A DNA stretch of 64,000 nt from Candidatus Levybacteria bacterium RIFCSPHIGHO2_01_FULL_37_17 (GCA_001782035.1 MFNL01000002.1:60865-124864); one strand, 5' to 3'. Numbered from the stretch's first letter, positions 1,796-31,179 are shown. A program made the numbers and translations. Notes: generated by a model not told the origin, from the sequence alone.

Positions 1796-2498
1796 TTATT
1801 GCCTTCTTCCTTTCTTTTTTTTGTTCATACATTTCTCTGTCTGCTTGTTTTAGGGTTGCTTGAGGATTTATTAAGTCTACATCTTTAATTCCAGCCGACA
1901 TTCCAAGTTTTAGCCCTCGATTAGAGAGTCTCTTACTGAACGGTATTTTTCTAATTCCTTCGACAATGCGCTCAATAACTAATTTTGCCCCCTCATCCGT
2001 TGTATCTGGAAGTAGCAATACAAATTCATCTCCCCCATATCTTCCTGCAATGTCTGTTGGTCTTATACTAGCTCCAATCACTTTTCCTATCTGTGCTAAA
2101 ACTTCATTTCCGCTTTCGTGACCGAACATATCGTTTACTGATTTGAACCCATCCAAATCAGTAAAAATAAGTTTTAAATTACCTTTTTTCTCTCTGGATA
2201 TTCTTGCTTCAACTTTTAGTATTTCTTCGAATGTCCTTAAGGTATTAAGGCCCGTTAGTGGATCTTTCTTATATTCTTCGATTATGGGGTCTGTCTCTTG
2301 TTTAAGGCTGTCAGCTGCAATAAAAGCTGCATTTCTTTTCAGTTTTTTCTGTTCTGGATCAGTTACGCCAAACAAAGCTCTTCTTACATGATTTCGAACA
2401 GCAGCATATCTTTTTCTTAGTTCTCCAAAACTTAACCTTTCTTGAGGAGTAGCGGCTTCTGCTTGACCCCTTGTTTTTTCTACTGCATCTATCGCCAT
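1788..2498 (-). CDS. GGDEF-domain diguanylate cyclase with a short N-terminus and no obvious sensor domain
   Basis: RYGGDEFVLLLP motif with flanking GGDEF-domain conservation (FTDLDGFKSVNDMFGHESGNEVL). Its stop overlaps the dnaE start by 8 nt. Confidence 0.8.
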   Translation of the reverse strand: MAIDAVEKTRGQAEAATPQERLSFGELRKRYAAVRNHVRRALFGVTDPEQKKLKRNAAFIAADSLKQETDPIIEEYKKDPLTGLNTLRTFEEILKVEARISREKKGNLKLIFTDLDGFKSVNDMFGHESGNEVLAQIGKVIGASIRPTDIAGRYGGDEFVLLLPDTTDEGAKLVIERIVEGIRKIPFSKRLSNRGLKLGMSAGIKDVDLINPQATLKQADREMYEQKKERKKAING

Positions 2499-2499
2499 G

Positions 2500-3861
2500 T
2501 TATTTTATTTTCGCGAGTAAACTCGCCTTAACTTTTGATGCATCAATTTTTTGTGGGAAATTATGCATCACTTGTCCCACTAAAAACATTATAGCGTTTT
2601 CTTTCCCCCTTTTGTAGTCCGAAACCGCGGTTTCGTTTTCTCTTAGGACTAATTCTATGGCTTTATCCAACTCTTTGTCATCGATGTCGGCAGTTGTTGT
2701 AGAGCTTTTGAACTGGTTAATTAATTGCTTAGTAAGATTTGGAACAAGGTTTTGGTCAATTTTCTCTTCTGGCTTATTAGCAAGGAAGTTTCCGAATTTA
2801 CCCAATTGTTCTTTGGGTAGTATATTTTCTTTAATCACGGCCTCAAATACCTGGGTTCTGTACTTTGAAGCCGAAATAGACGCACCGGATGCATTTGATA
2901 CCCCTAGACCTACGTAAAAATTAGCTTTTTCTTTAGGAGAATTTTTTCTAGCCTCCTCCAATAAATTCTTGACTTCAGTTTTCCAATTATTTCTTTGTTC
3001 ATCAGTCCATCTAAATGGAGGAATATCTGGTTCTGGAAAATATCTGTAGTCAGATGCTTCTTCTTTTATTCTTTGAGAAACTGTTGATTGAGTTTTCTCG
3101 ATAAAACCCCTTGTTTCCTGCACAGGCGTTTCTCCTTTATCTAGTATTTCCCTCTGTCTTGCTAACTCAAATTCAATTGCCCTTTCAACAAATTTAAATG
3201 AATTAATATTCTTTACTTCGACTTTATAACTGGGCCGTTTTTCTCCTTCTTTCCTCAAGGATATGTTTGGTTCAAGTCTCATTTCACCTTTCTCCATATC
3301 TGCGTTTGAAATTCCCAGATATCGAACTATTTGCTTAAGAGACTTTAGGTACTCTGTTACTTCGAAGGGATTTACAAAATCTGGTTCAGTTACTATTTCA
3401 ACTAACGGAACCCCGGAGCGGTTAAAGTCAATGAGCGTTAAGTCACCTTCATGAATTAATTTTCCTGTATCCTCTTCCATATGAACTCTTCGAACATCTA
3501 TTTTTTTCTCCTTGTTTTGGCTATTTGGTTCTTGCTTGATAAAAACTTCACCATCAACTGCAAAGGGTTGGTCGTATTGGCTTATTTGATAGCCTTTGGG
3601 TAAATCTGGATAAAAGTAGTTTTTTCGATCAAACCTAGAGAATGGAGGAATCTCGCAATTCAATGCGTACCCGAGCATTATGCACCATTCGATAGCTTTT
3701 TTATTTGGAACAGGAAGTGCACCTGGAAGCCCTAAACATACTGGGCATGTATGCGTATTTGGTTTTTTACCAAAGTAGTCTGCAGAGCATCTGCAAAACA
3801 TCTTTGATTTTGTTTTCAGCTCTACGTGAACTTCTAAGCCGATAACAGGGGTATATTTCAT
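2500..3861 (-). CDS. gatB: Asp/Glu-tRNA(Asn/Gln) amidotransferase subunit B
   Basis: N-terminus VIGLEVHVELKTKSKMFCRC...CPVCLGLPGALPV is the GatB signature. Confidence 0.9.
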   Translation of the reverse strand: MKYTPVIGLEVHVELKTKSKMFCRCSADYFGKKPNTHTCPVCLGLPGALPVPNKKAIEWCIMLGYALNCEIPPFSRFDRKNYFYPDLPKGYQISQYDQPFAVDGEVFIKQEPNSQNKEKKIDVRRVHMEEDTGKLIHEGDLTLIDFNRSGVPLVEIVTEPDFVNPFEVTEYLKSLKQIVRYLGISNADMEKGEMRLEPNISLRKEGEKRPSYKVEVKNINSFKFVERAIEFELARQREILDKGETPVQETRGFIEKTQSTVSQRIKEEASDYRYFPEPDIPPFRWTDEQRNNWKTEVKNLLEEARKNSPKEKANFYVGLGVSNASGASISASKYRTQVFEAVIKENILPKEQLGKFGNFLANKPEEKIDQNLVPNLTKQLINQFKSSTTTADIDDKELDKAIELVLRENETAVSDYKRGKENAIMFLVGQVMHNFPQKIDASKVKASLLAKIK

Positions 3862-5294
3862 AAATTTGGTCTTTTCTTCCTCCAGTTCTCATTTGCAGTT
3901 GCCATTTCATATTGATGTGCGACTTGTAAAACCAAGTCTTCTGCAAATTGACGGCCTATTATTTGCATGCCAATAGGTAGCATGCTTTTAGAGAATCCTA
4001 TGGGAATATTTATTCCAGGCAATCCTGCGATAGATGAGGGTTCGACTAGTATGTCGGCTATTTCCCCAAACATTGCAGCATTTTCGCTAGCTCCTGCGTG
4101 AAGTGGAAGAGATGGGGAAGTTGGACCTAGTATCACATTAACTTTTTCAAATGCTTTTTCAAAGTCGTTTACTATTAAAGATCTTGCCTTAGCCGCTCTA
4201 TTGTAATACTGGTTATAATATCCGGATGACAACGAATAGGTTCCGAGCACAATTCTTCTTTTTGCTTCCTCACCGAACAATTTTCTGTCCTTTCCAAAGC
4301 GTACTCCATCGTAACGGGCAAGATTTGAAGATACCTCACTCCTTTGAATTATTGTATAGACAGAAGTGGCATATTTTGGTTTGACTAGATTAATTTTTAC
4401 AATCTTCGCACCCATTTTTTCGAGTTTTTCAATTGAGAGCCGAACAGCCGACTCAACTTCCTTGTCAATTCCATCAATAAAGTACTCGTCTGATATCCCT
4501 ATCTTGAGATTTTTTATTTTGTTATCTACTACAGGCAATGTATAATCCCCTACCGGTGGTAGGGAAGTAGTAGCATCAAATTCATCAGTTCCTGCTAAGA
4601 CCCGTAGCAATAAAGCAGAATCCTCAACTGTTTTTGTAATCGGCCCTGGGGAGTCCAACGAAGATGCCATTGCAATAACACCATACCTTGAAACTCTTCC
4701 ATAGGTTGGCTTAAGTCCAACAACTCCGCACCATGATGCAGGCTGTCTTATAGAACCGGCTGTCTCGCTTCCAATAGCTGCTATCGCCTCGTCGGCAGCC
4801 ACAGCCGCAGCAGAGCCCCCGGAAGAACCTCCGGGCAAATGTTTTGTATTCCAAGGGTTTTTTGTTGAACCGTAATCGGAAGTTTCAGTAGACGAACCAT
4901 GTGCCCATGCATCCATATTTGTTTTGCCAATTAGCACAGCTCCTGCGTCTTTCAGTTTCTTAACAACAGTTGCATCATACGGAGGGATATAATCGTCCAA
5001 AACTTTACTAGAAGCAGTAGTTCTAATACCCATAGTAGAGAAATTATCTTTCACCGCAATAGGTATTCCTAAAAGAGGCAAATCTTGATTACTGGAAAGA
5101 AGTTTATCTGCTTTTCTAGCTGCAGAGACTACATCATCGTAAGTTGGTGCAATTGGTTTTATAAATGCATTTATTTTTTTATCAACTTTTTCTATCTGAG
5201 CTAAACAGGCCTCGGTAAGGTCAAATGAGCTAAATTCTCTTTTTATTAATCCCTCTTTTGCTTGCTTAATGGTCAACGAGTTTAATTCAGTCAT
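3858..5294 (-). CDS. gatA: Glu-tRNA(Gln) amidotransferase subunit A (amidase signature family)
   Basis: GGSSGGSAAAVAA amidase signature. The start is probably the internal Met (MTELNSLTIKQ); the ORF could extend to 5327. Confidence 0.88.
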   Translation of the reverse strand: MTELNSLTIKQAKEGLIKREFSSFDLTEACLAQIEKVDKKINAFIKPIAPTYDDVVSAARKADKLLSSNQDLPLLGIPIAVKDNFSTMGIRTTASSKVLDDYIPPYDATVVKKLKDAGAVLIGKTNMDAWAHGSSTETSDYGSTKNPWNTKHLPGGSSGGSAAAVAADEAIAAIGSETAGSIRQPASWCGVVGLKPTYGRVSRYGVIAMASSLDSPGPITKTVEDSALLLRVLAGTDEFDATTSLPPVGDYTLPVVDNKIKNLKIGISDEYFIDGIDKEVESAVRLSIEKLEKMGAKIVKINLVKPKYATSVYTIIQRSEVSSNLARYDGVRFGKDRKLFGEEAKRRIVLGTYSLSSGYYNQYYNRAAKARSLIVNDFEKAFEKVNVILGPTSPSLPLHAGASENAAMFGEIADILVEPSSIAGLPGINIPIGFSKSMLPIGMQIIGRQFAEDLVLQVAHQYEMATANENWRKKRPNL

Positions 5295-5685
5295 TATTAA
5301 GAACTCCTTTAACTTTAAATAATCCATTTTGAGTAGCCTTAGCGTTTTTTAAAGCTTCATCTTGGGATAGCGATGGAGAGGGTTCATCTTCTCTCGAGAT
5401 ATTTTCAAGGCCAGTTATTTGAGAGCTTGGTTCAAGTTGGCTTACAAGATTGTCTAAGTCTTTGAGGTTATTAATATAAGCAAGGGTTTCGTCTAGCTGT
5501 TGAGAAAGTTTAACCCCTTCATCTTGCGTTATATCCAAAGCAGCTAATTCAGCTATGTGTTTGATACGTGTCTTGTCGTCCGAGAAATATGTAACGCTTG
5601 CGGAACTGATTTCAGATCTTGCTGTTGTACCAGTTGAGCTAATAATTAGGTCCTTAGACTTAGAGATTTCATGTTTTTTGACCAT
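5287..5685 (-). CDS. gatC: Asp/Glu-tRNA amidotransferase subunit C with an N-terminal extension
   Basis: C-terminal 90 aa (IKHIAELAALDITQDEGVKLSQQLDETLAYINNLKDLD) match the GatC pattern. It sits directly upstream of gatA-gatB. Confidence 0.6.
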   Translation of the reverse strand: MVKKHEISKSKDLIISSTGTTARSEISSASVTYFSDDKTRIKHIAELAALDITQDEGVKLSQQLDETLAYINNLKDLDNLVSQLEPSSQITGLENISREDEPSPSLSQDEALKNAKATQNGLFKVKGVLNND

Positions 5686-5688
5686 GTA

Positions 5689-6099
5689 TTAATTTGAAGG
5701 CTTATCAACAAAGAACGAGGCGGATGCCAAGTCCTTACCATTTACCTTAACAGCAATCTTATGCTCCCCATAGTTACTTAATTTAACTGAGTTCAATTGG
5801 TAAATAATGTTAAAGTTCCTTTTCCTATCGTTATATTTTGGCAAACTTACTTTTAAGGTAGGTATCTTATTCTCAACGATTGAATTCCCCTTACTATCTA
5901 AGATGTCCAAATCAACATTGGCTGATTGGATATCTTTATCGTCAACCATAACACTTCCTACTAGATAAAGAGTTTGATGCAATGCTGGGACAGATTGCGC
6001 GTAAATTGTTTCAAAAACACCGTTAATCATTAATTTTCCATCCCTATCGGTACTTGCGTAATCTGCTAGGAGGAAAAAGTTTTTATCAAATTTACTCAT
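5689..6099 (-). CDS. hypothetical protein
   Basis: 136-aa ORF in operon position; no recognisable motif. Confidence 0.4.
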   Translation of the reverse strand: MSKFDKNFFLLADYASTDRDGKLMINGVFETIYAQSVPALHQTLYLVGSVMVDDKDIQSANVDLDILDSKGNSIVENKIPTLKVSLPKYNDRKRNFNIIYQLNSVKLSNYGEHKIAVKVNGKDLASASFFVDKPSN

Positions 6100-6117
6100 A
6101 AAAGTATTATATCATTA

Positions 6118-6876
6118 TTATAAATTTACTCCGAGTCTTTTAGCAATTGCGATTCTGGCTTTTTCTTCCAAAGATTCGTCTAAGGGTTTTAACTCGATTT
6201 TAGAATTATATTTCCTTTCCAAGGCTTTTGTTATTAAATAATCTGCAAATTCAGGATTTTTAGGTAGAATAGGTCCATGAGCATATGTTCCAAAACTTTC
6301 TTTATAAATAGCGCCTTCAGTTTTATCCTCACCATTGTTTCCGAAACCAACAATTACCTCACCAAAAGGCTGAATGTTTTTCCCAAGATATGTTCTACCT
6401 CCATGATTTTCAAAGCCTACAACTGGTAGAGTTAATCCTTTCACCTTAGGTTTAAAAATCATGTTCCCAATTAGTCTTTCAGATTTCCCCCCCGGGTTTT
6501 CGGTATATAAATCAAATATTCCAATCCCATCAACAATTGTCCCATCGGATTCTTTATAATAATTGCCTAAAAACTGAAATCCGCCACAAACATATAAGCC
6601 CGGTGTTCCATCATCTATTTTGTTTTTAAGATATTTTTTAACTCTTTTTAGGTCGTTATTAACTATTGTTTGTTGTCTATCCTGGGCTCCTCCCATCAAC
6701 AATAAGTCACAATCATCAAGCTGTTTATAGTCAAAATCAGGGTTAAGCATTTTAACTTCAGCCCTAACATCTCTCCACTGACATCTTTTAACCAAAGCAA
6801 CGATATTACCTATATCCCCGTAAATATTCATGAGTTCCGGATATAGCCATCCAATAATTAAGGTTTTAATTTTCAT
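6118..6876 (-). CDS. gatD: lipid II isoglutaminyl synthase, glutaminase subunit GatD (CobQ-type GATase)
   Basis: CobB/CobQ-like GATase with the catalytic Cys in LYVCGGFQFLG. It is translationally coupled to the upstream MurT-like gene. Confidence 0.7.
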   Translation of the reverse strand: MKIKTLIIGWLYPELMNIYGDIGNIVALVKRCQWRDVRAEVKMLNPDFDYKQLDDCDLLLMGGAQDRQQTIVNNDLKRVKKYLKNKIDDGTPGLYVCGGFQFLGNYYKESDGTIVDGIGIFDLYTENPGGKSERLIGNMIFKPKVKGLTLPVVGFENHGGRTYLGKNIQPFGEVIVGFGNNGEDKTEGAIYKESFGTYAHGPILPKNPEFADYLITKALERKYNSKIELKPLDESLEEKARIAIAKRLGVNL

Positions 6877-8147
6877 AGTAATTTTCTTCCTAGTAAGATT
6901 TTTCTTACATCAAGCATTGCAGAGTAGTTTGGTAAAACATAAAGTTTTTCATCGCTATCCAGATTATCGACCATTGAATTAATTGCATTTTCCAGATTTT
7001 CTTCCGAATGGAAAAAAATTCCTGCATATTTTAGTCTTAGCGCCATATCATAGGTTCTATCCCCCGAGACCATAATATTTATATCTGAATCTAAAATTCT
7101 TTCAATTCCTATATCCCAGATCCAGGAAACGTCAAGTCCGTCTGGGATTCTGTCATTTAAAACAATTAAAATATTTTCTGCCCTAAGATCCATTATAGTT
7201 GCCAATGATTCGTTAAAACTGGTTGGATTTTTCGCAAGAAATAAATTAATTGCTTTCCCTTTATAGCTTATTTTTTCTTGTCTGCCAAAGGCAGGCTTGA
7301 ATTTTTTTAATCCCTCGACTATTTGGTCATTATTAAATCTCAATTTATTTAAAAGAAGGTTTGCCGCAATAGTATTGTATTTATTATAAATTCCATCGAG
7401 TGGATAAAAAGAGGCTCTTATGATAGTTGGCTTTGGTCTTTCAAATTGGCAGTTACCACATCTCCATATTCCCAAGTGAGAGAAATAAACTTTTTCAAAA
7501 GTAAGTCTTGTTGAACATTTTGGGCAAAAGATAGAATCAGCACCGTGTTTTAACCTTTTAAGGTTTTCTTTTCCATCCAGCCCAAAATAAAACTTATTCT
7601 TCCTGTTTTCTCCTAAGTAAGTGATTAACGGATCGTCTGCGTTAAGAATTAAAGTTATTGAGTCGTGTTTATCGATGGAATTCTTCCATCTTTTTGCAAT
7701 TGAGTCTAATTCTCCATATCTATCTAGTTGGTCTCTAAAAAGATTTAAACAGATTAAATAATCTGGATTGACATTTTCAAGGATCTGGGGTAAAGCAAAC
7801 TCGTCTGATTCAAAAATTAGATAATCTTTATCAATTCTACCGAAAAGGGTTGAGTTTTGAATTAGCTCAGACGCTAATCCGTTAAGCAAGTTTGCGCCTG
7901 CAACATTATGCGCATAGGTCTTCTGACTCGCTTTTAATACTGATGCGATTAATTTACCAGTCGTTGTCTTGCCATTGGTTCCAGCAACTACAATTTTTAT
8001 AGCCTTTGATTTTGACAGTATATTTCTGCAAAAATTTTGGTTTAGCTTTAAGGCAATGTGACCAGGCCAGGTCGATCCCGAGCCTAAATTGAAGGTTCTA
8101 CTGAACAATATTATTGTTTTACCAATAAGAATAGAGAGAAAGTCCAT
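6873..8147 (-). CDS. murT: lipid II isoglutaminyl synthase, Mur-ligase subunit MurT
   Basis: Mur ligase P-loop (VAGTNGKTTTGKLIASVL) plus a Cys4 ribbon (CPKCSTRL...CGNCQFERP). The domain order is typical of MurT. Confidence 0.7.
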   Translation of the reverse strand: MDFLSILIGKTIILFSRTFNLGSGSTWPGHIALKLNQNFCRNILSKSKAIKIVVAGTNGKTTTGKLIASVLKASQKTYAHNVAGANLLNGLASELIQNSTLFGRIDKDYLIFESDEFALPQILENVNPDYLICLNLFRDQLDRYGELDSIAKRWKNSIDKHDSITLILNADDPLITYLGENRKNKFYFGLDGKENLKRLKHGADSIFCPKCSTRLTFEKVYFSHLGIWRCGNCQFERPKPTIIRASFYPLDGIYNKYNTIAANLLLNKLRFNNDQIVEGLKKFKPAFGRQEKISYKGKAINLFLAKNPTSFNESLATIMDLRAENILIVLNDRIPDGLDVSWIWDIGIERILDSDINIMVSGDRTYDMALRLKYAGIFFHSEENLENAINSMVDNLDSDEKLYVLPNYSAMLDVRKILLGRKLL

Positions 8148-8153
8148 AATGAC

Positions 8154-9041
8154 CTACATTGAGCGCAAAATCTTTATCCTTTCCTCAAGAGGCGGATGTG
8201 TATTGAAAAGCCCGGTGAAAAAATTTTTTACTTTTTTATTATCAAATGGATTCTCAATAAACAAATGGGCAGTTGCGTTGCTTGCAACCCTTGGGGCCGT
8301 ATGGTCCTTGGCAAGCTTTTCCAATGCCTGTGCCAAGCCCTCCGGGTATCTTGTTAAAAGCACACCTGAAGCATCAGCTAAAAACTCTCTTTTTCGTGAA
8401 ACTGCAAGTTGAATTAACGTAGCTGCAATTGGAGATAGAATGGCAAAAATTATTGCGAGTACCAAAAATATCTGGCTTCCTCTGTTATCCCTGTCTCCTG
8501 AAAAAAAAGTCATTCTAATAAAGATATCTGAAAGTATTGCAACAAAACCAACAAGAATCGCCACTATTCCCATAAGCCTAATATCAAAATTTTTGATATG
8601 GGAAAGCTCATGGGCTATTACGCCTTCAAGCTCGGCCTCACTCATAATTGAAAGCAAGCCGGTTGTTGCACAAACTACAGCATGCTTAGGGTCTCTTCCG
8701 GTTGCGAAGGCATTAGGGGATGGGTCATCCATTATATATACATTCGGCATTGGCAGGCCAGATGCAATCGATAAGTTTTCAACTATTCGAAAATACTGTG
8801 GATAGTCTTGTTTTTTTATTTGCTTTGCGCCTGTTGTAGCTAGTACTAATTTATCGGAATAATAATAACTTCCTATACTCATTAATCCTGCTAAAACTAG
8901 TGCTAAGCCAGACATTCCAAGAGCGCTAAAACCAAGAGCTTTTGAAAATACATAAACCAAAGTTGAGACAACCAAAACAAACAATATCATAACTAACCAG
9001 GTTTTGGTTTTGTTGGAAGAAATAGCCGAATAAATGTTCAT
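8154..9041 (-). CDS. htpX: M48 zinc metalloprotease HtpX
   Basis: HELSHIKNFD HExxH motif, multiple TM helices, and the conserved LemA-HtpX pairing. Confidence 0.8.
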   Translation of the reverse strand: MNIYSAISSNKTKTWLVMILFVLVVSTLVYVFSKALGFSALGMSGLALVLAGLMSIGSYYYSDKLVLATTGAKQIKKQDYPQYFRIVENLSIASGLPMPNVYIMDDPSPNAFATGRDPKHAVVCATTGLLSIMSEAELEGVIAHELSHIKNFDIRLMGIVAILVGFVAILSDIFIRMTFFSGDRDNRGSQIFLVLAIIFAILSPIAATLIQLAVSRKREFLADASGVLLTRYPEGLAQALEKLAKDHTAPRVASNATAHLFIENPFDNKKVKNFFTGLFNTHPPLEERIKILRSM

Positions 9042-9043
9042 AA

Positions 9044-9592
9044 CTAAAACTTAACCTTAACTTCTTTTTTCTCTTGCTCTGTAGCAGCGAAGAATTCTTC
9101 TTCTTTAAAGTTAAATAAGTTAGCAATTATCATGTTTGGGAAAACTCTTAGCTTAGTGTTGTAATCCAAAACGTTTGAATTATAAAATTGCCTTGCATAT
9201 GCAATCTTGTTTTCTGTATCTGAAACCTCTTCTTGGAGTTCCAAAAAATTCTGGCTCGCCTTTAAGTCAGGATAAGCTTCAGCGACTGCGAAAATGGACT
9301 TTAAAGTATCCGAAAGCATGTTATTTGCTTCTGCTTTATCATGTGGGGTTTTGGCTGATACCAAGTTGGCCCTCTCCTTAGTTACTTTTTCAAAAAGTTC
9401 TTTCTCGTGTTTTGCATAACCTTTAACTGCTTCAACAAGGTTAGGAATTAAATCTGCTCTTCTTTTGAGTTGGACATCTATTTGGGAAAAGGCTTCAGAA
9501 ATCCTTATCTTTGCAACAATTATACTGTTATACAGCCACCAAACAAAACCTGCTAAAACAACTGCCGTTATCAATATTATCCAAATATTCAT
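9044..9592 (-). CDS. lemA: LemA family protein
   Basis: N-terminal TM then a LemA-like helical domain ([27 protein letters not shown]). Confidence 0.75.
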
Positions 9593-9604
9593 TCTCTCAC
9601 CTCC

Positions 9605-11374
9605 TTATTTTTTAAACCAATCTTCTATCTGATTATACGACATCGTGTTTATAATGTCACTGCTCTTACCCCACCCGCGTCTTGCTACAAATACTCCATA
9701 CTTTTGTAAATCCATTTGACTTGCTGCATGACTGTCACTATCAATCACAAGTTTTACCCCTCGTTGAACCGCTCGTTTAACTAATGCGTCAGATAAGTCA
9801 AGTCTTTGTGGCTGGCTGTTTATTTCAAGTGCAATGTTTTTTTCCTTGCAAAAACTGAATATTTTCTCAAAGTCCAAATCATAACCGCTCCTATTATTTA
9901 ACAGCCTTCCAGTGGGATGACCAAGAATTTTGACTTTCTTATGCGATAATCCCTTTAGTACTCTTTCTGTCATTGCATCTCTAGTCATATTAAAAACGCT
10001 ATGAATCGAGACTATTACAGCATCAAGTAACTCTAATGACTTATCATCAACTGCTAAGTCACCATTAGGCAAAATGTCAATTTCGAGCATTTTAAATATT
10101 CGAACACCAATTTTATTAGATTTAAGTTGTTCGATATATTTATCTCTTTTAGTAAGTATTTTGAAGATTTGGTCATTGGTATGTTTTGAAATACTCGGAT
10201 TATGTTCCGAAAATCCCAGATATTCATATCCTAGTGACTTTGCTCTTTTTAACATATCCTCCATTGTGTCTTTCCCTAAATCGTGGCTTGGCTCAATAGG
10301 GAAATTTGAATGTATATGAAAGTCGCCTTTTATCTCATCAAGCTCTAAGAGCTTCGGAAGTTTGTTTGCAATTGAAAGTTCTATCTCCCCATTGTCCTCC
10401 CTCATTTCAGGTGGAATCCATTGCATTCCAAGCGCTTTATAAAATTCTTCCTCACTTGAATATTTTTGTAGTCTTTTATCTTTTGTTTTTAACTTCTTTA
10501 TTCCATACTCTGATAAGGATAAGCCCTTGCTTAGCGCATACTCACGTAAATGAACGTTGTGGTTTTTGCTGCCCGTAAAATGCTGCAAAAGTGAACCAAA
10601 AGCGTCTTTTGGCTGAATTAATAAGTCAATTTGCTTTCCGCCAGAGACCAAAATTGAGGAGGAAACATCACCTTTTTCTATTACTCGTTCTTTAAATGGA
10701 TAATTTACAAAATGATCAATTACTGCTTTAGGATTTGAGGTTGAGACCGCAAAATCTATGTCTCCAATAGTTGAAGTTCTTCTTCTAAGGCTTCCTAAGG
10801 CCTCAACTCTTTCAACGTTCTTTGTTTTAAGTAAATAGTTTTTAATCTTCTCCGCAATTTCAAAGGCATATGGCAACACCATTCTTGACGTCTTTCCCTT
10901 TCCAGCTCTAAATTCATCAATTGCTCTGAGTATATCTTTTTCACTCTTTTCGCCAAAGCCCTCAAGATGTGCTATTTTACCTCGTTTTGCAATTTTTTCG
11001 AGCTGGTCTATCACAGTTTTCTCGTTATTCAACTTAAATTCCATTACAAGCCTAAAAGCTTTTTTAGGTCCGAAGGTGGGAATATCGGTTAACACAAAAA
11101 CTGATTTAGGGATTCCATTTAAGACCCAATCAAAATGTTTAACTTTGCCCTTTTTAAACAGTTCTTCTAAGTGAGATTTAATAGTGGGACCCACTCCGGG
11201 TAAAAGTTCCAGTGAGTCTTCTTTAATGTATTCAGACAATTCACCGTTTAAATTAGCAATGGACTCAGACGCTTTTTGATACGCAATAATTTGGAATCTG
11301 AATTTTTTCTCGTTTTTTATGGTATAAGCAGTTGCAATATTTTGAAGAAGTTTTGCTACTTCTATGTTGCTCAT
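9605..11374 (-). CDS. polX: DNA polymerase X family protein with a C-terminal PHP phosphoesterase domain
   Basis: N-terminal HhH/Pol-beta-like region and C-terminal PHP motifs (GDFHIHSNFP..., HPTGRLL, DSDSH). Confidence 0.8.
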   Translation of the reverse strand: MSNIEVAKLLQNIATAYTIKNEKKFRFQIIAYQKASESIANLNGELSEYIKEDSLELLPGVGPTIKSHLEELFKKGKVKHFDWVLNGIPKSVFVLTDIPTFGPKKAFRLVMEFKLNNEKTVIDQLEKIAKRGKIAHLEGFGEKSEKDILRAIDEFRAGKGKTSRMVLPYAFEIAEKIKNYLLKTKNVERVEALGSLRRRTSTIGDIDFAVSTSNPKAVIDHFVNYPFKERVIEKGDVSSSILVSGGKQIDLLIQPKDAFGSLLQHFTGSKNHNVHLREYALSKGLSLSEYGIKKLKTKDKRLQKYSSEEEFYKALGMQWIPPEMREDNGEIELSIANKLPKLLELDEIKGDFHIHSNFPIEPSHDLGKDTMEDMLKRAKSLGYEYLGFSEHNPSISKHTNDQIFKILTKRDKYIEQLKSNKIGVRIFKMLEIDILPNGDLAVDDKSLELLDAVIVSIHSVFNMTRDAMTERVLKGLSHKKVKILGHPTGRLLNNRSGYDLDFEKIFSFCKEKNIALEINSQPQRLDLSDALVKRAVQRGVKLVIDSDSHAASQMDLQKYGVFVARRGWGKSSDIINTMSYNQIEDWFKK

Positions 11375-11445
11375 ACAATCGAAATCTTATCACACAGATT
11401 GATAATTCGACAAGCTCATTATCAAGCTTAAGCCTGTAGGATGGA

Positions 11446-11473
11446 TTGACGTAAGTTCAATTACTGATATAAT
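11446..11473 (+). promoter_or_regulatory. sigma70-like promoter for tRNA-Asp (TTGACG-N16-TATAAT)
   Basis: TTGACG at 11446-11451 and TATAAT at 11468-11473; the tRNA starts at 11483. Confidence 0.55.
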
Positions 11474-11482
11474 AGACTCCAC

Positions 11483-11558
11483 GGGCTCGTAGTGAAGAGG
11501 CCTATCACGCCTCCCTGTCACGGAGGAGATCACCGGTTCGAATCCGGCCGAGCCCGCA
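11483..11558 (+). tRNA. tRNA-Asp (GTC)
   Basis: Cloverleaf folded by eye: acceptor GGGCTCG/CGAGCCC, anticodon loop CTGTCAC, T-arm ACCGG-TTCGAAT-CCGGC. Confidence 0.85.
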
Positions 11559-11595
11559 ACTGCCCCATATCTTTCTGTCCGAAAGGAGGGAATAA

Positions 11596-12126
11596 ATGGC
11601 AAAATCAAATAACAACTTCTTATCGCAAATTAAGTGGGGAGAATCCTACACAAGTCTTATCTTAGGAGTAGTCGTAGTGCTTGTTGCCGTTGCTTTGCTT
11701 TTTTTAATTTTTAAAAACAGTACAAATCAAAAGAAAGAAACAGGTTCTGCTTCAACAAATGAAGAAAAAACTTATACCGTAAAAGAAGGAGATGATTTGT
11801 GGCACATATCAGAAGGATTATACGGCTCCGGATATAACTGGCAAGATTTAGCAAAAGCAAATAAAATCTCTAACCCAAACATAATAGTGCCTGGCACTAA
11901 ATTATCGGTTCCAAAAGTTGAAGTTAAAGAAAGAACCATTACAGAGGCAGTAAGAGATAATACAATTACCGGCAACTCCTATAGCGTGATTGAAGGAGAT
12001 AATCTTTGGAGCATATCTATCAGAGCTTATGGGGATGGATATAAATGGCCGGAGGTTGCAAAAGCTAATAACTTACAGAATCCTGATAGGATATATGTTG
12101 GGATAGTGCTAAAGCTTCCTAGGTAG
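11596..12126 (+). CDS. LysM-domain protein with an N-terminal TM helix and two LysM repeats
   Basis: Two copies of the ...EGDDLWHISEGLYGSGYNWQDLAKAN...LSVP pattern. Confidence 0.7.
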   Translation: MAKSNNNFLSQIKWGESYTSLILGVVVVLVAVALLFLIFKNSTNQKKETGSASTNEEKTYTVKEGDDLWHISEGLYGSGYNWQDLAKANKISNPNIIVPGTKLSVPKVEVKERTITEAVRDNTITGNSYSVIEGDNLWSISIRAYGDGYKWPEVAKANNLQNPDRIYVGIVLKLPR

Positions 12127-12157
12127 AGTATTTTTTTGTATAATTGTTTTGTCACTA

Positions 12158-12228
12158 GCGGGATTGGTTCAGTGGCAGAATATTTCCTTCCCAAGGAAGA
12201 GACGCGAGTCCGATTCTCGTATCCCGCT
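12158..12228 (+). tRNA. tRNA-Gly (CCC)
   Basis: Acceptor GCGGGAT/ATCCCGC; anticodon stem TTTCC/GGAAG with loop TTCCCAA; T-loop reads TCCGATT (C at position 55). Confidence 0.8.
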
Positions 12229-27646: not shown

Positions 27647-28606
27647 ATGTTAATAGACGAAGTAGTAGTAACAATTAAAGCCGGTAATGGCGGAAACGGC
27701 GCAATTAGTTTTAAACGGAATGCCCAAACTGCAAAAGGAGGTCCAGATGGTGGAAATGGAGGCAAAGGGGGAGATGTTTACATTGTTGGCGCACGTGATA
27801 TAGATACTCTTACTACTTTTAGATATCAAAAAGTAGTAAGGGCAGAAGACGGAATAAATGGAGGGAAATATAACCTGTACGGCAAAAATGCAGAAGACAA
27901 GATTATTAAGGTTCCACTTGGAACGATTACTACTAATCTAGAAAGCGGTAACTCTTTCGAAATCAATAGTGAAGAAGATAAATTCCTTATCGCAAAAGGT
28001 GGTAAGGGTGGAAGGGGTAATAATGAATTTAAATCATCAACTACGCAAGCTCCAAGATATAGAGAGTTAGGGGGGATTGGTGAAGAAAAGAAAATTAAGT
28101 TAGAACTTAAAATAATTGCCGACATAGGATTAATAGGGCTTCCCAATGCCGGAAAAAGCAGCTTGCTCTCAGTTCTTACAAATGCTCACCCTAAAATAGC
28201 AGATTATCCCTTCACGACCCTTGAACCAAATTTAGGAGTTTTTGATTCGAAAATAATCGCCGATATTCCAGGTCTTATAGAAGGAGCCTCTCGCGGTAAG
28301 GGATTGGGAGATAAATTTTTAAAACACATAGAAAGAACAAGACTTTTAGTCCATTGCATAGACTCTAGCTCTCAGACTCCAACAGCCGATTATAAAACAA
28401 TTAGAAAAGAATTGGAGGAGTTTAATTCAGAATTACTAGATAAAAAAGAGATGGTTGTTTTGACAAAGCAAGATTTAATTGATGAAAAAAAACAAAAAGA
28501 ATTGGAAGCTACCTTTAAAAGAATGAAAAAGGAGATTGTTTTTTTATCTTTATATAATGACAATAGTTTAGACGAGCTAAAAAAAGTACTTCATGAAGCA
28601 ATTTAG
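27647..28606 (+). CDS. obg: GTPase Obg/CgtA
   Basis: Gly-rich Obg fold (GGNGGNGAISF...GGPDGGNGGKGGDVY) and G-domain GLIGLPNAGKSSLL. Confidence 0.9.
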   Translation: MLIDEVVVTIKAGNGGNGAISFKRNAQTAKGGPDGGNGGKGGDVYIVGARDIDTLTTFRYQKVVRAEDGINGGKYNLYGKNAEDKIIKVPLGTITTNLESGNSFEINSEEDKFLIAKGGKGGRGNNEFKSSTTQAPRYRELGGIGEEKKIKLELKIIADIGLIGLPNAGKSSLLSVLTNAHPKIADYPFTTLEPNLGVFDSKIIADIPGLIEGASRGKGLGDKFLKHIERTRLLVHCIDSSSQTPTADYKTIRKELEEFNSELLDKKEMVVLTKQDLIDEKKQKELEATFKRMKKEIVFLSLYNDNSLDELKKVLHEAI

Positions 28607-28612
28607 CCGCAA

Positions 28613-28640
28613 AAAAACCCCTTGCGGGGTCTTTTCGGGG
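28613..28640 (+). terminator. rho-independent terminator after obg
   Basis: aaaaaaCCCCttgcGGGGtcttttcgg: a GC stem followed by a T-tract. Confidence 0.6.
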
Positions 28641-28759
28641 CGATTAATATTGCTATTAATCTCCTGCCTTTTTATACTTACGTATTGAAGGTAAAAAACA
28701 TTATATATAGCAATTTATGCATTGTCAATAGGGTAAAAATAGGTCAAACTAGACCAATA

Positions 28760-29104
28760 TTAGAATACATCAACCTTTGGACTCCTTGGATATACTTCTC
28801 TTACTTCTGCAAGTGTCTTTTTGCCAATTCCATGTACCTGTCCGTTTCCCGTTACCCTCCACATCACCTCCGTATCGGATAACTCACTTATCTGCTCGGG
28901 AGTTGTAAGTCGTTCATCTCTAATAGCAAGCCTAATACATCTTCTTGCTCTTGATGATAAATCAGAAAAACGTTCGTACATAACCGCATTGTACTCCAAA
29001 TGTTTCAGAATTGGGATTATTGAAGATCTCTCGGAAGAAACGAATCGGGCATTGGCTCCGTGTAGGATACGGTTGCTTGAGATAGTATTTTCCACTTCAT
29101 ACAA
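28760..29104 (-). CDS. RNA polymerase alpha-CTD-like HhH domain protein (possibly the 3' half of a frameshifted gene)
   Basis: LSSRARRCIRLAIRDERLTTPEQISELSDTEVMWRVTGNGQVHGIGKKTLAEVREV resembles the alphaCTD HhH. The frame is only open from a TTG. It overlaps ORF 29017..29421 by 88 nt in another frame. Confidence 0.35.
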   Translation of the reverse strand: MYEVENTISSNRILHGANARFVSSERSSIIPILKHLEYNAVMYERFSDLSSRARRCIRLAIRDERLTTPEQISELSDTEVMWRVTGNGQVHGIGKKTLAEVREVYPRSPKVDVF

Positions 29105-29421
29105 TTGTCTCGTACTACTGACCTTGCTCTATTTTTTGCCATCTCTATAGCATCGTCAGACGTTTCTCCTCTGCCCGACAAATGTTCCCTTAGTGGACAT
29201 GAATCGCAATTTAATAGCCCGACAGCATTATAAAGATATAAGAGATTATTTGTTGTTGGCTTGCTGGCGACTGTTACTTCTGCCTCACAAATAACATCTG
29301 GCTGTAATTCGGGCTTGTGCGGCTCCCTTTCTGGACTATGTCTACTTTCAAATGATTCAAAACTTGGTCCTCTTTCTCCCATAATGTAGGGGATAATACC
29401 AAATACAAGATAGAATGTCAA
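29017..29421 (-). CDS. hypothetical protein (possibly the 5' half of a frameshifted gene), Arg/Glu/Pro-rich
   Basis: ORF in a GC-rich island; contains the NCDSCP motif; no confident family. Confidence 0.3.
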   Translation of the reverse strand: MTFYLVFGIIPYIMGERGPSFESFESRHSPEREPHKPELQPDVICEAEVTVASKPTTNNLLYLYNAVGLLNCDSCPLREHLSGRGETSDDAIEMAKNRARSVVRDNCMKWKILSQATVSYTEPMPDSFLPRDLQ

Positions 29422-29621
29422 ACTATGGGATTACGAGTACCCCAAGTGTTTAAGAATTGTCATGATCCTGAGTTTTTTCGGAGGAGAACCAGATTCGTGG
29501 CTCTTTAGAGAAGTGGAAAAACATACTTCAACCTGAGGCTAATCCTGCTCTGTTTATTAACCGTCATTAGAGAGTGGAATTAATAAGCAACTCAACCTAT
29601 AGTTGATATATTTATTTTCAT

Positions 29622-30566
29622 TTGCTATACTCCACCATTATGAATGAACGATCAAATGCAGAAAGGGCTGAAGCAGTAACAAAATATACCGTAGAAATTC
29701 GTTCCATAAATGAGGATGGTGCTATTAGATTAAGAGACGAAGGATTGGCAGTTGCCCGAGAAATGGGTGTTCCAGGCTTTTTAGCAGTTTATAGTAGAAC
29801 TGGCATGGAAGAGACTACGCAAGTTCAAGGTGCAGCAACACTTCTTAACGTTGAAGTTGCAAGGGCAAAAATAAAAACAGTTTTAGCAGTTAGGCGATCT
29901 TCAAGACTTCAACGGGAAAGAATGGCAGAAAAAGGTCAAACAAGAGAAGACTTCGGTGGTCAGTTGGGAAGTCTTTTTGGTGGAGGGATTGCTTTGTTCG
30001 CCGATGAAGCAAGAACACAATTTATTGGAGCCATGGCATTTAGTGGAGGGACTCAAGAAGAAGACGAGGAAATTTGTAGAAGAGCTGTGGAGAGAATAGG
30101 TCTATATACAGATGTAGATCCAGTCTTAACCCAAAGCGTCAATGAAGAACAAGCTAATGACCGACTACAAACTTTTACATTTGATGGAGAACCTCTCAGG
30201 GTATCATACCAGGATACTGAGCACGTTGCTGAAGGTGTAGAATGTGACGTCTACCGATTTGAGGGAGACGATACCAAGGACTTAGGAATAATTAAGGTTA
30301 AGCCAGGTTTTAGTACACCACGACAAAGAGTTTTAGATGGAGATAGAACAATTGAGGGATACATGTCGGGCAAGGGTAAGCTTATTATTACCAAACCCGA
30401 TGGGACAATTGATAGTTATTCGTTTGATCAAGACACGCTAAATTTTACATTAAATGTGAGGATTGGCGAAATAATGCAGTGGCAAGCAGATACAGAATTT
30501 CCCTTAGTTGCATCTGAAGTGTGTTTTCCTCCCTACAATAATGATAGATACGAGAGAGTTGCTTAG
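29622..30566 (+). CDS. two-domain protein: N-terminal GlcG/HbpS-like (DUF336) domain plus an unknown C-terminal domain
   Basis: N-terminal 150 aa carry GlcG hallmarks (GVPGFLAVY..., FGGGIALF, FIGAMAFSGGTQEEDEEICRRAVERIG). The C-terminal 160 aa have no recognisable motif. Confidence 0.55.
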   Translation: MLYSTIMNERSNAERAEAVTKYTVEIRSINEDGAIRLRDEGLAVAREMGVPGFLAVYSRTGMEETTQVQGAATLLNVEVARAKIKTVLAVRRSSRLQRERMAEKGQTREDFGGQLGSLFGGGIALFADEARTQFIGAMAFSGGTQEEDEEICRRAVERIGLYTDVDPVLTQSVNEEQANDRLQTFTFDGEPLRVSYQDTEHVAEGVECDVYRFEGDDTKDLGIIKVKPGFSTPRQRVLDGDRTIEGYMSGKGKLIITKPDGTIDSYSFDQDTLNFTLNVRIGEIMQWQADTEFPLVASEVCFPPYNNDRYERVA

Positions 30567-30729
30567 CTTGTTGTATTAATCTAACTTCACAAGATCTATG
30601 TACTCCAAATGTTTAGGAATTGGAACCAGATACGAGCTTCAATCAGACATGGGATCGTATATTGAATCCTAGCCTCAGTTCAGCATTACAGCTTAGCTAC
30701 CAATAGGGAGTGGAAATAGTTGATTAGAT

Positions 30730-31035
30730 TTACCTTCTTCCGTCTAACATTGGAGTTGGTGCAATTTTTTCAACCATTCTTTCAATAGCTTCTGTAGGAA
30801 TATCACCCGTATCGTATGTAACAAAAGCTGCACCTTTCGGAACTCTGGCATTTCCATCAGGATATGGAGCTCCTTCATCAGCAACTATTCTAAATGGAAG
30901 ATCAAAACGACCAAGTACTTCTCTAAGAGCGAAAGCTCTTTCAAGACTTACAGTACTTGTATGTGGCAAAATTTCATTTGGATTTCTTTCAGGCAATCTT
31001 TCTGGCATGATTGAGGAATTATAATACTTGAACAA
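30730..31035 (-). CDS. hypothetical small Arg/Pro-rich protein
   Basis: 101-aa ORF in the GC-rich island; no family recognised. Confidence 0.3.
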   Translation of the reverse strand: MFKYYNSSIMPERLPERNPNEILPHTSTVSLERAFALREVLGRFDLPFRIVADEGAPYPDGNARVPKGAAFVTYDTGDIPTEAIERMVEKIAPTPMLDGRR

Positions 31036-31061
31036 GCGAATGTCAATACTATGAGCTCTTG

Positions 31062-31134
31062 TACCGCGTAGGGGAGTCGAACCCCTGATTCCCTGGCTGA
31101 AAACCAGGTGTCCTAGGCCACTAGACGAACGCGG
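31062..31134 (-). tRNA. tRNA-Glu (TTC)
   Basis: rc reads GCCGCGTTCGTCTAGTGGCCTAGGACACCTGGTTTTCAGCCAGGGAATCAGGGGTTCGACTCCCCTACGCGGTA; anticodon loop TTTTCAG. Confidence 0.85.
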
Positions 31135-31179
31135 CAGGACAGATATTATACCTTAAAATTAACTTTTAAGGCAAACTAT

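Follow-up and report, generated by a model that had tools for sequence, protein, structure and literature searches.

Tandem recombinase-less units at the 3' end of a tRNA-Glu gene in Candidatus Levybacteria, probably deposited by tRNA-targeting large serine recombinase elements

We analyzed a stretch of 64,000 nucleotides from Candidatus Levybacteria bacterium RIFCSPHIGHO2_01_FULL_37_17 (GCA_001782035.1 MFNL01000002.1:60865-124864), referred to below as the window, with a focus on the interval between obg and the 3' end of an antisense tRNA-Glu(TTC) gene. Gene calls on a contig of the same genome (L001) place four open reading frames (ORFs) of 73, 121, 308 and 92 aa in this interval. A first-pass annotation, made from the sequence alone, had described positions 28641-31061 as a GC-rich island and a horizontally acquired cassette; the landmarks that it listed, i.e., obg, tRNA-Glu and the four ORFs, are all real. 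We present evidence that the island, from approximately 28739 to 31060, is very probably a tandem array of three small units and a distal remnant that elements of a clade of large serine recombinases (LSRs) left behind at the 3' end of tRNA-Glu(TTC). The coordinates of the features are collected in Table 1.

The array is marked by a repeat. Within the 64 kb, the motif GTAC[CT]CCAAATGTTTNNGAATTGG occurs exactly three times, always in the same orientation, at 28991, 29437 and 30600, with 0 copies expected by chance. Each copy heads a module of approximately 125 nt, and each module starts at a core, TGTAC(C), that is common to the last bases of the tRNA gene, where it recurs at the tRNA end at 31061. 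In locus L002 and many other loci the module consists of exactly 35 codons, VPQMFxNWNQ[IL]RxSLExWKxLLxPSFxPxLxxNYH, and a stop, with the frame closed just upstream. Over 16 indel-free modules, there were 2 stops in frame +0 vs 33-45 in each of the five other frames, and the synonymous fraction of codon differences was 28.5% in frame +0 vs 10-12% in the other two plus-strand frames; variability by codon position followed the order 3 > 1 > 2. No conserved structure was detected by RNAalifold in 25 modules with flanks (-1.4 kcal/mol, four invariant pairs, 0 covarying), and Rfam searches found only tRNAs, at gathering thresholds in the whole window and at E<=10 in the island. The repeats had been taken for non-coding modules; all three copies exist, but by their frame and homology they are the orphaned 3' coding ends of recombinase genes.

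A profile search of 5.8 billion proteins, for which the 35-codon peptide was duplicated in tandem as the query, yielded only five short ORFs of 48-62 aa, and nowhere in this search did the module peptide end a protein other than a recombinase. IMG/VR contigs gave 0 matches to the module and thus no sign that phages or viruses carry it. Two other origins were considered and rejected. Neither remnants of a disrupted larger host gene nor polymorphic-toxin C-terminal cassettes agree with a frame that is closed just upstream in every copy, with cargo that consists of separate ORFs in either orientation and not of C-terminal extensions, or with the few short ORFs returned by the profile search.

The recombinase gene that the module completes was found in relatives. 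In L137, an ORF of 524 aa (3736-5310) with Resolvase (PF00239, E=3e-35) and Recombinase (PF07508, E=3e-17) domains and a weak Zn ribbon points toward the tRNA and stays in frame across the core, whose GTA is the codon of Val494; its last 31 codons are antisense tRNA-Glu (VPPRGFEPLILWLKTRCPGPLDDGG...). The element measures 4.06 kb and has a module at its opposite end, in the same frame relative to the core. Joined on paper to its own module, the L137 recombinase gives a 528-aa protein ending ...TTLVPQMFRNWNQIR...NYQ, with the tail ...EVEKTTLVPQMFRNWNQIRASLEMWRSILNPEVRPILSPNYQ. For these elements of the relatives, as opposed to the window units, a continuous attP with a conserved 528-aa ORF can thus be rebuilt on paper from attL and attR.

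The clade, which is found in Levyibacteriota/Patescibacteria, comprises approximately 36 members with 49-100% identity, which share a conserved ...LGLPFxLI...KTxLV. Their tails are either tRNA-antisense, with GFEP or GVEP representing the T-arm read backwards, or, less commonly, of the native VPQM... type (P0026, P0043, P0060, P0061). Public clade proteins (P0024-P0058) show chimeric C-termini in which 16-45 residues come from the tRNA antisense strand. Such C-termini arise as artefacts of integration, and alignments or structure predictions that cover the tail would be misled by them.

Recombinases with the Resolvase and Recombinase architecture are also present in L163-L168, and the LSR ORF is in frame across the core in L137 and L164-L168. 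The layout [module ... cargo ... LSR -> tRNA] recurs on long contigs, i.e., in L165 (tRNA-Glu-TTC, about 6.7 kb), L166 (tRNA-Lys-TTT, about 5.3 kb, core GTGAGCC) and L167/L168 (tRNA-Glu-CTC, about 7.3 kb, core GTGACCC). The L165 element occupies the chromosomal locus of the window, in the order obg ... module ... Piwi+SIR2 ... LSR -> tRNA-Glu(TTC)-mscS-tRNA-Lys. In L164, another unit separates a full element from the tRNA, and the recombinase of the full element reads into the module of this neighbour. L163 (Logan SRR22000240_7499, 1-12166) is probably a circular form: the ends of this 12.1-kb contig overlap by 29 nt of non-repetitive sequence, and its LSR has a native tail. As an episome, it may be a plasmid, phage-like or an excised element.

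Two of these elements carry further genes of note. L165 (GCA_964521295.1) encodes, at 5031-8266, a Piwi-domain protein of 684 aa followed by a SIR2_2 protein of 392 aa, a pair of the prokaryotic Argonaute (pAgo)-SIR2 type, and its presence in the element suggests that the hot spot imports defence genes. L163 also encodes SRAP, a Y-family DNA polymerase (IMS), a weak reverse-transcriptase-like ORF and helix-turn-helix regulators.

A survey of the module, by pattern scan of representative genomes and metagenomes and then by profile search, identified 109 modules in 79 partly redundant loci, mainly from Candidatus Levyibacteriota and other Patescibacteria. Several of the comparison loci are short contigs of metagenome bins with unreliable taxonomic labels; the bins of L009, L010, L013, L036, L041, L042, L060, L062 and L065 are titled 'uncultured Gammaproteobacteria', probably a placeholder or a mis-assigned label. 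Modules within an array share one orientation and are spaced 0.5-1.7 kb apart, with about one gene per interval, and the arrays abut the 3' end of an antisense tRNA gene wherever the flank suffices (Glu-TTC, Glu-CTC, Lys-CTT or Arg-TCT). Their cargo includes HAD hydrolase, AIR-synthase-like, GNAT, MUG113/T5orf172, Zeta toxin, methyltransferase, SDR, RpiB and DUF805 genes. By regular-expression scans, the tyrosine-recombinase box II signature was absent from the window and from every array locus. An HUH transposase near the arrays was also considered and discarded, the sole HUH-like match (in L065) being a HIT-family protein.

Individual units are present in one locus and missing from another. 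Compared with the window, L002 lacks the segment 30600-31060, which holds module B and the 92-aa gene, with the junctions at the core. Similarly, L056 carries one more unit next to the tRNA than L019 does. Finally, L002 and L059 share a unit made up of a module and a 224-aa gene (94.7% identity over 899 nt), which takes the third place from the tRNA in L002 but the first in L059. The junctions of all three pairwise comparisons are nucleotide-precise at TGTAC(C). The core also follows the tRNA that it adjoins: the first 7 nt of the modules agree with the tRNA terminus at 126/147 positions vs 106.5 when permuted, and 0/20000 permutations reached the observed value. Co-varying cores include GTGAGCC at tRNA-Lys, GTGACCC at some tRNA-Glu genes and GTAGCCC at a tRNA-Glu(CTC). 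At the level of compared sequences, then, we consider the array structure, the core-precise junctions, the co-variation of core and tRNA, the in-frame relation of recombinase and module, and the presence of a full element at the same hot spot in a relative to be established.

The anchors of the locus, obg ... tRNA-Glu-mscS-tRNA-Lys, are kept in relatives, with an obg amino acid identity of 63-66% to the counterparts in L165, L131 and L136. Rather than the same four genes, relatives hold varying content between these anchors. The proposal of a horizontally acquired insertion at the tRNA-Glu 3' end, perhaps old, decayed or non-canonical, is thereby supported, with the difference that the region is not one single cassette but an array of three units and a distal remnant. 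That the first-pass annotation saw no duplicated tRNA 3' end also agrees with our data: a long copy is absent, and only the 5-6-nt core TGTAC(C) is common to both. This is to be expected of serine recombinases, for which a very short core in common suffices.

The composition of the region gave a mixed picture. Its GC content, put at 45-50% in the first-pass annotation, measured 39.4% vs 36.8% for the window, a difference of approximately 1.25 standard deviations (SD 2.1%, equal-size windows); 10% of equal-size windows reach at least this value, and 300-nt windows within the region have a maximum of 0.43. Two 60-nt lines counted by hand at 47% and 52% were close to the program's 46.7% and 50%, but both are local peaks only. 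Coding GC in the island was 0.41 (z about 2) and GC at third codon positions was not raised (0.26 vs 0.288 in the background), so the modest rise in GC reflects amino acid usage, not a foreign mutational bias. The argument from GC for a foreign origin is accordingly weak, and borderline against the gene-to-gene variance in GC by which its author had proposed to judge it. By contrast, the proteins are as atypical as had been described: they are compositional outliers vs 41 background ORFs, with Arg, Glu, Ala and Pro together making up 0.30-0.42 of residues vs 0.21 +/- 0.04 in the background, and Lys, Ile and Asn approximately 0.11 vs 0.224 +/- 0.028, with 0/41 background ORFs equally extreme.

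Table 1. Features of the window between obg and tRNA-Glu(TTC), in plus-strand order.
Feature	Coordinates	Strand	Remarks
obg (GTPase)	27647..28606	+	conserved left anchor, outside the island; ORF; Pfam GTP1_OBG/MMR_HSR1 on same-genome contig L001
native small structured-RNA-like unit	28608..28738	-	promoter, three hairpins, hairpin+U7 terminator shared back-to-back with obg
distal remainder	28739..28990	-	no module on left; holds 73-aa ORF 28760-28981
unit 3	28991-29436		truncated module C, 121-aa gene, promoter arm
module C, putative cut-short recombinase 3' end	28991..29033	+	core GTAC 28991-28994; VLQMFQNWDY, stop after 10 codons
121-aa cargo ORF, unit 3	29017..29382	-	gene call on L001; atypical composition
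promoter-type arm, unit 3	29393..29421	-	TTGACA-17-TATTAT with TG; predicted to drive 121-aa gene; within conserved motif CATAGTTTGACATTC
unit 2	29437-30599		module A, 308-aa HbpS-like gene
module A, putative orphan recombinase 3' end	29437..29582	+	core GTAC 29437-29440
308-aa cargo gene, unit 2	29640..30566	+	N-terminal HbpS-like/GlcG domain, Pfam PF03928 E=2e-16
unit 1, tRNA-proximal	30600-31060		module B, 92-aa gene, promoter arm
module B, putative orphan recombinase 3' end	30600..30718	+	core GTAC 30600-30603
92-aa cargo ORF, unit 1	30730..31008	-	gene call on L001; atypical composition; rare family
promoter-type arm, unit 1	31018..31046	-	TTGACA-17-TATAAT, 12/12; adjoins tRNA core, predicted to drive 92-aa gene
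tRNA-Glu(TTC), putative attB half-site	31061..31135	-	last bases GGTAC = GTACC on plus strand at 31061-31065 = proposed recombination core

All three modules of the window are disrupted. The frame of module A is broken by a 26-nt insertion (29460-29485), beyond which it reads NQIRGSLEKWKNILQPEANPALFINRH and then a stop; a 1-nt deletion shortens that of module B to VLQMFRNWNQIRASIRHGIVY and a stop; and module C is cut after 10 codons. Elsewhere, the frame is kept open in 14/16 of the indel-free copies, a set that by its definition leaves out copies with indels. This difference between the window and most copies elsewhere fits orphans that are no longer under selection. As the first-pass annotation had stated, there is no integrase on board: no recombinase gene or pseudogene was found in the 64-kb window, and tblastn with the clade recombinases matched only the tRNA antisense strand (31058-31153) and module B (30600-30647). 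The window therefore holds a recombinase-less derivative and not an autonomous member of the clade. To judge from sequence homology, each of its modules is a 3' end severed from the recombinase gene, and the array as a whole is recombinase-less and decaying.

Most of the cargo has no family assignment. The 73-, 121- and 92-aa proteins had no Pfam, NCBIfam, PADLOC or PHROG family match, and a search of 1.84 billion representatives gave only 2 strong relatives of the 92-aa protein. The 308-aa gene has an orthologue in L002 that is 77% identical and lies directly at the tRNA. Among homologues P0003-P0018, the HbpS-like N-terminal half of the 308-aa protein stands alone or is fused to a domain resembling the C-terminal domain (CTD) of RNA polymerase alpha (P0004), and its uncharacterised C-terminal half is elsewhere fused to GNAT acetyltransferases or alpha/beta hydrolases. 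The 73-aa ORF of the distal remainder carries a helix-hairpin-helix-like GIGKKTLAEV motif, reminiscent of the CTD fused in P0004, and no homologue of it was present in the fetched relative loci. The distal remainder is either the oldest remnant of the array or displaced original flank.

Near-perfect sigma70-type promoters adjoin two of the cores and face the minus-strand cargo (31046->31018 and 29421->29393). They lie in an arm with the signature CATAGT(T/A)TTGACATTC, at 29413-29427 and 31037-31052, which doubles as the -35 region of the promoter facing the cargo gene and is seen again next to cores of other genomes. It is not simply the generic promoter consensus of the lineage: the 64 kb contain only 5 strong sigma70-type promoters, and the upstream ATAG is found only at the island arms. 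Over all loci, the left arms of the cores are promoter-type, palindromes that look like remnants of the recombinase codons F-N-L-I, intact recombinase ends, or, in many cases, unique.

On its left, the island is bordered by a native unit that resembles a small structured RNA. Nucleotide identity over 28600-28738 is 72-81% in L136, L131, L037 and L166, and the unit has its own promoter, TTGACA-17-TATAAT (28728->28700), matching the consensus at 12/12 positions. RNAalifold gave -19.8 kcal/mol, with both-side (compensatory) changes in 9/29 pairs; the middle hairpin shows compensatory changes in four relatives, hairpins 1 and 3 close on GNRA tetraloops (GUAA, GCAA), and AAGGCAGGAG and ACCCCGAAAAG are conserved single-stranded stretches. 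There was no Rfam match for this unit. Given that 28608-28738 is conserved native flank, the variable island begins near 28739, about 100 nt to the right of the edge at 28641 that had been proposed.

We propose the following mechanism. In the excised circle, attP would lie inside the 3' end of the recombinase gene, which would then end with the approximately 35 codons VPQMFxNWNQIR...NYH. Recombination would take place at a short core, GT(A/G)NNCC, common to the last bases of the tRNA, and would strip the 35 codons and the 3' untranslated region from the gene; both would stay at the far end of the element as the module, and the integrated recombinase ORF would run on into the antisense strand of the tRNA. 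Each newcomer would enter at the core next to the tRNA and displace the older units outward, an order with which the window/L002, L056/L019, L137 and L165 comparisons are consistent. The window units themselves would be non-autonomous, either as reduced descendants of full elements or as small cassettes moved in trans, with each keeping one cargo gene and two keeping a strong outward promoter beside the core. For the clade, the alignments document integration at tRNA ends, a 5-7-nt core, attP within the recombinase gene, exchange of the tail and tandem accumulation. The particular units of the window were presumably moved by this recombinase clade, and the insertion of newcomers on the tRNA side is the order that the comparisons suggest.

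Several points weigh against this interpretation. All comparison loci were ascertained via the module, so the sample is without an empty obg/tRNA-Glu site, and pairwise comparisons read insertion and deletion alike. L002, which was compared with L059 for the repositioned unit, is a contig of 2.9 kb. No recombinase or remnant of one was found in the window, which is linked to the clade by module homology and by its locus, and the bulk GC shift of the region is not statistically distinctive. The left arms of the cores, of which 78 are distinct and which fall into at least three types, do not offer the universal second half-site that a dedicated satellite family needs. Furthermore, canonical serine integrases pair attP with attB and not with an occupied, attR-like site, as serial tRNA-proximal insertion would require. 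Finally, the whole evidence base is computational.

Among other explanations, the one that survives best takes the recombinase-less units for dedicated satellites, each composed of a promoter arm, core, module and one variable cargo gene and moved in trans by a resident LSR, on an integron-like platform. We regard this as possible, with the balance of probability against it. A unit whose place in the array differs between L002 and L059 and whose ends fall precisely at the core is what such satellites would produce, as is a conserved promoter-type arm (YATAGTTTGAC...TATAAT) that accompanies the cores of a wide variety of cargo genes and is not generic in the window. LSR pseudogene debris is absent from the window island, and the cargo is of integron-like diversity (HAD, GNAT, SDR, methyltransferase, Zeta toxin, RpiB, DUF805). 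Moreover, the recombinase-less unit of L164 is tRNA-proximal to a full LSR element and is thus probably the later arrival. However, left arms are heterogeneous and many are unique, those of the palindrome type look like deletion remnants of LSR codons F-N-L-I, and the promoter-type arm is unlike the LSR-side half-site of full elements. The window modules, too, are all broken, and no circular cassette was observed. We favour a mixture of recombinase-less units dominated by reduction and decay, in which the promoter-arm cassettes are candidate satellites.

Homologous recombination, e.g., after DNA uptake, between the approximately 125-nt modules and the conserved flanks could in principle shuffle units without any site-specific recombinase acting on them, the modules being mere portable homology. 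The modules are 70-95% mutually identical, which could support recombination, and the obg, tRNA-Glu and mscS flanks are conserved. On the tRNA side, however, the junctions share 5-7 nt with the module, far too short for this process; the core co-varies with the tRNA terminus over four tRNA species; and the module belongs to a recombinase gene, as the 3' end of a reading frame that runs across this very core. We therefore consider this explanation very improbable.

Still harder to sustain is the view that the module is an independent gene for a 32-aa small protein (MFxNWNQIR...), or a regulatory repeat, in a vertically inherited region with unusual proteins. The mini-ORF has a strong coding signature, the profile search yielded only short ORFs of 48-62 aa, and the bulk GC shift is not significant, all of which this view would accommodate. 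Yet the frame begins exactly at the core and continues LSR genes in frame, the three copies in the window are all disrupted, units are polymorphic for presence and absence at the core, and content varies between relatives at a conserved locus. An integron-type array of attC sites (a cluster of attC sites lacking an integrase, CALIN), recombined by an IntI tyrosine recombinase encoded elsewhere, can be dismissed with near certainty: the likeness is superficial (single-gene units, repeats of about 125 nt, diverse cargo, additions at one end), and the repeats are without a conserved hairpin or inverted repeat (-1.4 kcal/mol, 0 covarying pairs), carry a reading frame that continues a serine recombinase gene, adjoin a tRNA 3' end and not attI as the insertion point, and are accompanied by a tyrosine recombinase signature in no array locus.

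The array that we ascribe to the LSR clade resembles several known systems in part. SCCmec and related staphylococcal cassette chromosome (SCC) elements are mobilized by the large serine recombinases CcrAB or CcrC and target the 3' end of rlmH. They share with the present elements an LSR, a target site at the very 3' end of a conserved housekeeping gene that is not inactivated by the insertion, and a very short core, as well as tandem or composite arrays, accessory cargo and recombinase-less pseudo-elements movable in trans, the trans-mobility being a feature of SCC. The target here, however, is a tRNA (Glu, Lys, Arg) and not rlmH, attP lies within the recombinase coding sequence with the C-terminal approximately 35 residues swapped, the units are much smaller (0.45-7 kb) and the host is a bacterium of the Candidate Phyla Radiation (CPR). 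Since a Ccr-type LSR acting at the rlmH 3' end defines SCC and the targets here are tRNA genes, the elements fall outside that family. Phage large serine integrases (Bxb1, phiC31, A118/LI) use protein-coding or intergenic targets, with attP outside the gene. The architecture of Resolvase, Recombinase and zinc ribbon, the short att sites and the expected directional integration are common to both, but here the target is a tRNA and attP is inside the gene.

Integrons and CALINs, whose identity with the array is refuted on their defining features (attC hairpin, IntI, attI), nevertheless resemble it in their mostly single-gene units, repeats of approximately 125 nt, diverse cargo and addition at one end; attC repeats of Vibrio are close to 125 nt in length. 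The array differs in having no IntI and no attC hairpin, in its coding repeats, in insertion at a tRNA end, and in cargo that lies in both orientations and, at least in some units (the two minus-strand units of the window), has its own promoters.

Archaeal integrases of the SSV1 type have attP inside int, and integration into a tRNA gene splits int (PMC8371274). An att site within the integrase gene, a tRNA target, an altered gene copy and a detached fragment at the opposite end are shared with the elements described here. SSV-type enzymes, however, belong to the tyrosine recombinases and use a core that matches the tRNA over tens of bases, as opposed to a serine recombinase and a 5-7-nt core, and here only the last approximately 35 codons are exchanged, leaving the catalytic and DNA-binding domains intact. 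As the recombinase class differs, the relation is one of analogy, not membership. Tycheposons, the tRNA-flanked islands of Prochlorococcus, use tyrosine recombinases in 910/937 elements and leave partial-tRNA repeats (bioRxiv 10.1101/2020.12.28.424599). They too have tRNA-proximal hot spots, newcomers that push older elements inward, degenerate remnants and a cargo of defence and metabolic genes, but the repeats of the present arrays are recombinase-gene 3' ends and the sequence shared with the tRNA is only 5-7 nt. Likewise, the Islander signature of a displaced tRNA fragment, assumed to be tens of bases long, together with a tyrosine integrase does not describe this locus, at which 5-7 nt are shared and the enzyme of relatives is a serine recombinase.

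Targeting of tRNA genes by serine integrases has been called not previously reported (PMC4383910), and a later survey listed tRNA-targeting serine integrases as 14/297 candidates, with a few unverified cases awaiting proof (PMC7192596). We found no prior description of this LSR clade, or of a serine integrase with attP in its own 3' coding end, in the literature outside subscription sources. A serine integrase that targets tRNA genes and has attP inside its own gene is an uncommon variant.

It is tempting to speculate further, although we think the following improbable as a whole. The exchange of the C-terminal tail may be a built-in switch, in which the native tail integrates and the tRNA-antisense tail alters activity or site preference; orphan modules may act as tail donors, as in L164; and the tRNA end may be an LSR-run gene-capture platform with promoter-arm cassettes moved in trans. 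If this were true, the platform would be functionally integron-like and mechanistically unrelated to integrons, stocking reduced CPR genomes with defence genes (pAgo-SIR2 in L165) and metabolic genes.

The supposed GC island with repeats can be explained as a decaying array of site-specific cassettes with corrected borders, and the locus exposes an LSR clade that targets the last bases of tRNA genes. The layout with attP in the gene is a source of systematic mis-annotation, in the form of chimeric recombinase C-termini and uncalled mini-ORFs, and the exchange of tails on integration offers a testable handle on the control of directionality in serine integrases. The clade could also supply new integrases with natural, highly conserved landing sites. 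For the organisms themselves, the arrays point to a main route by which accessory and defence genes may be acquired and shuffled in very small CPR genomes.

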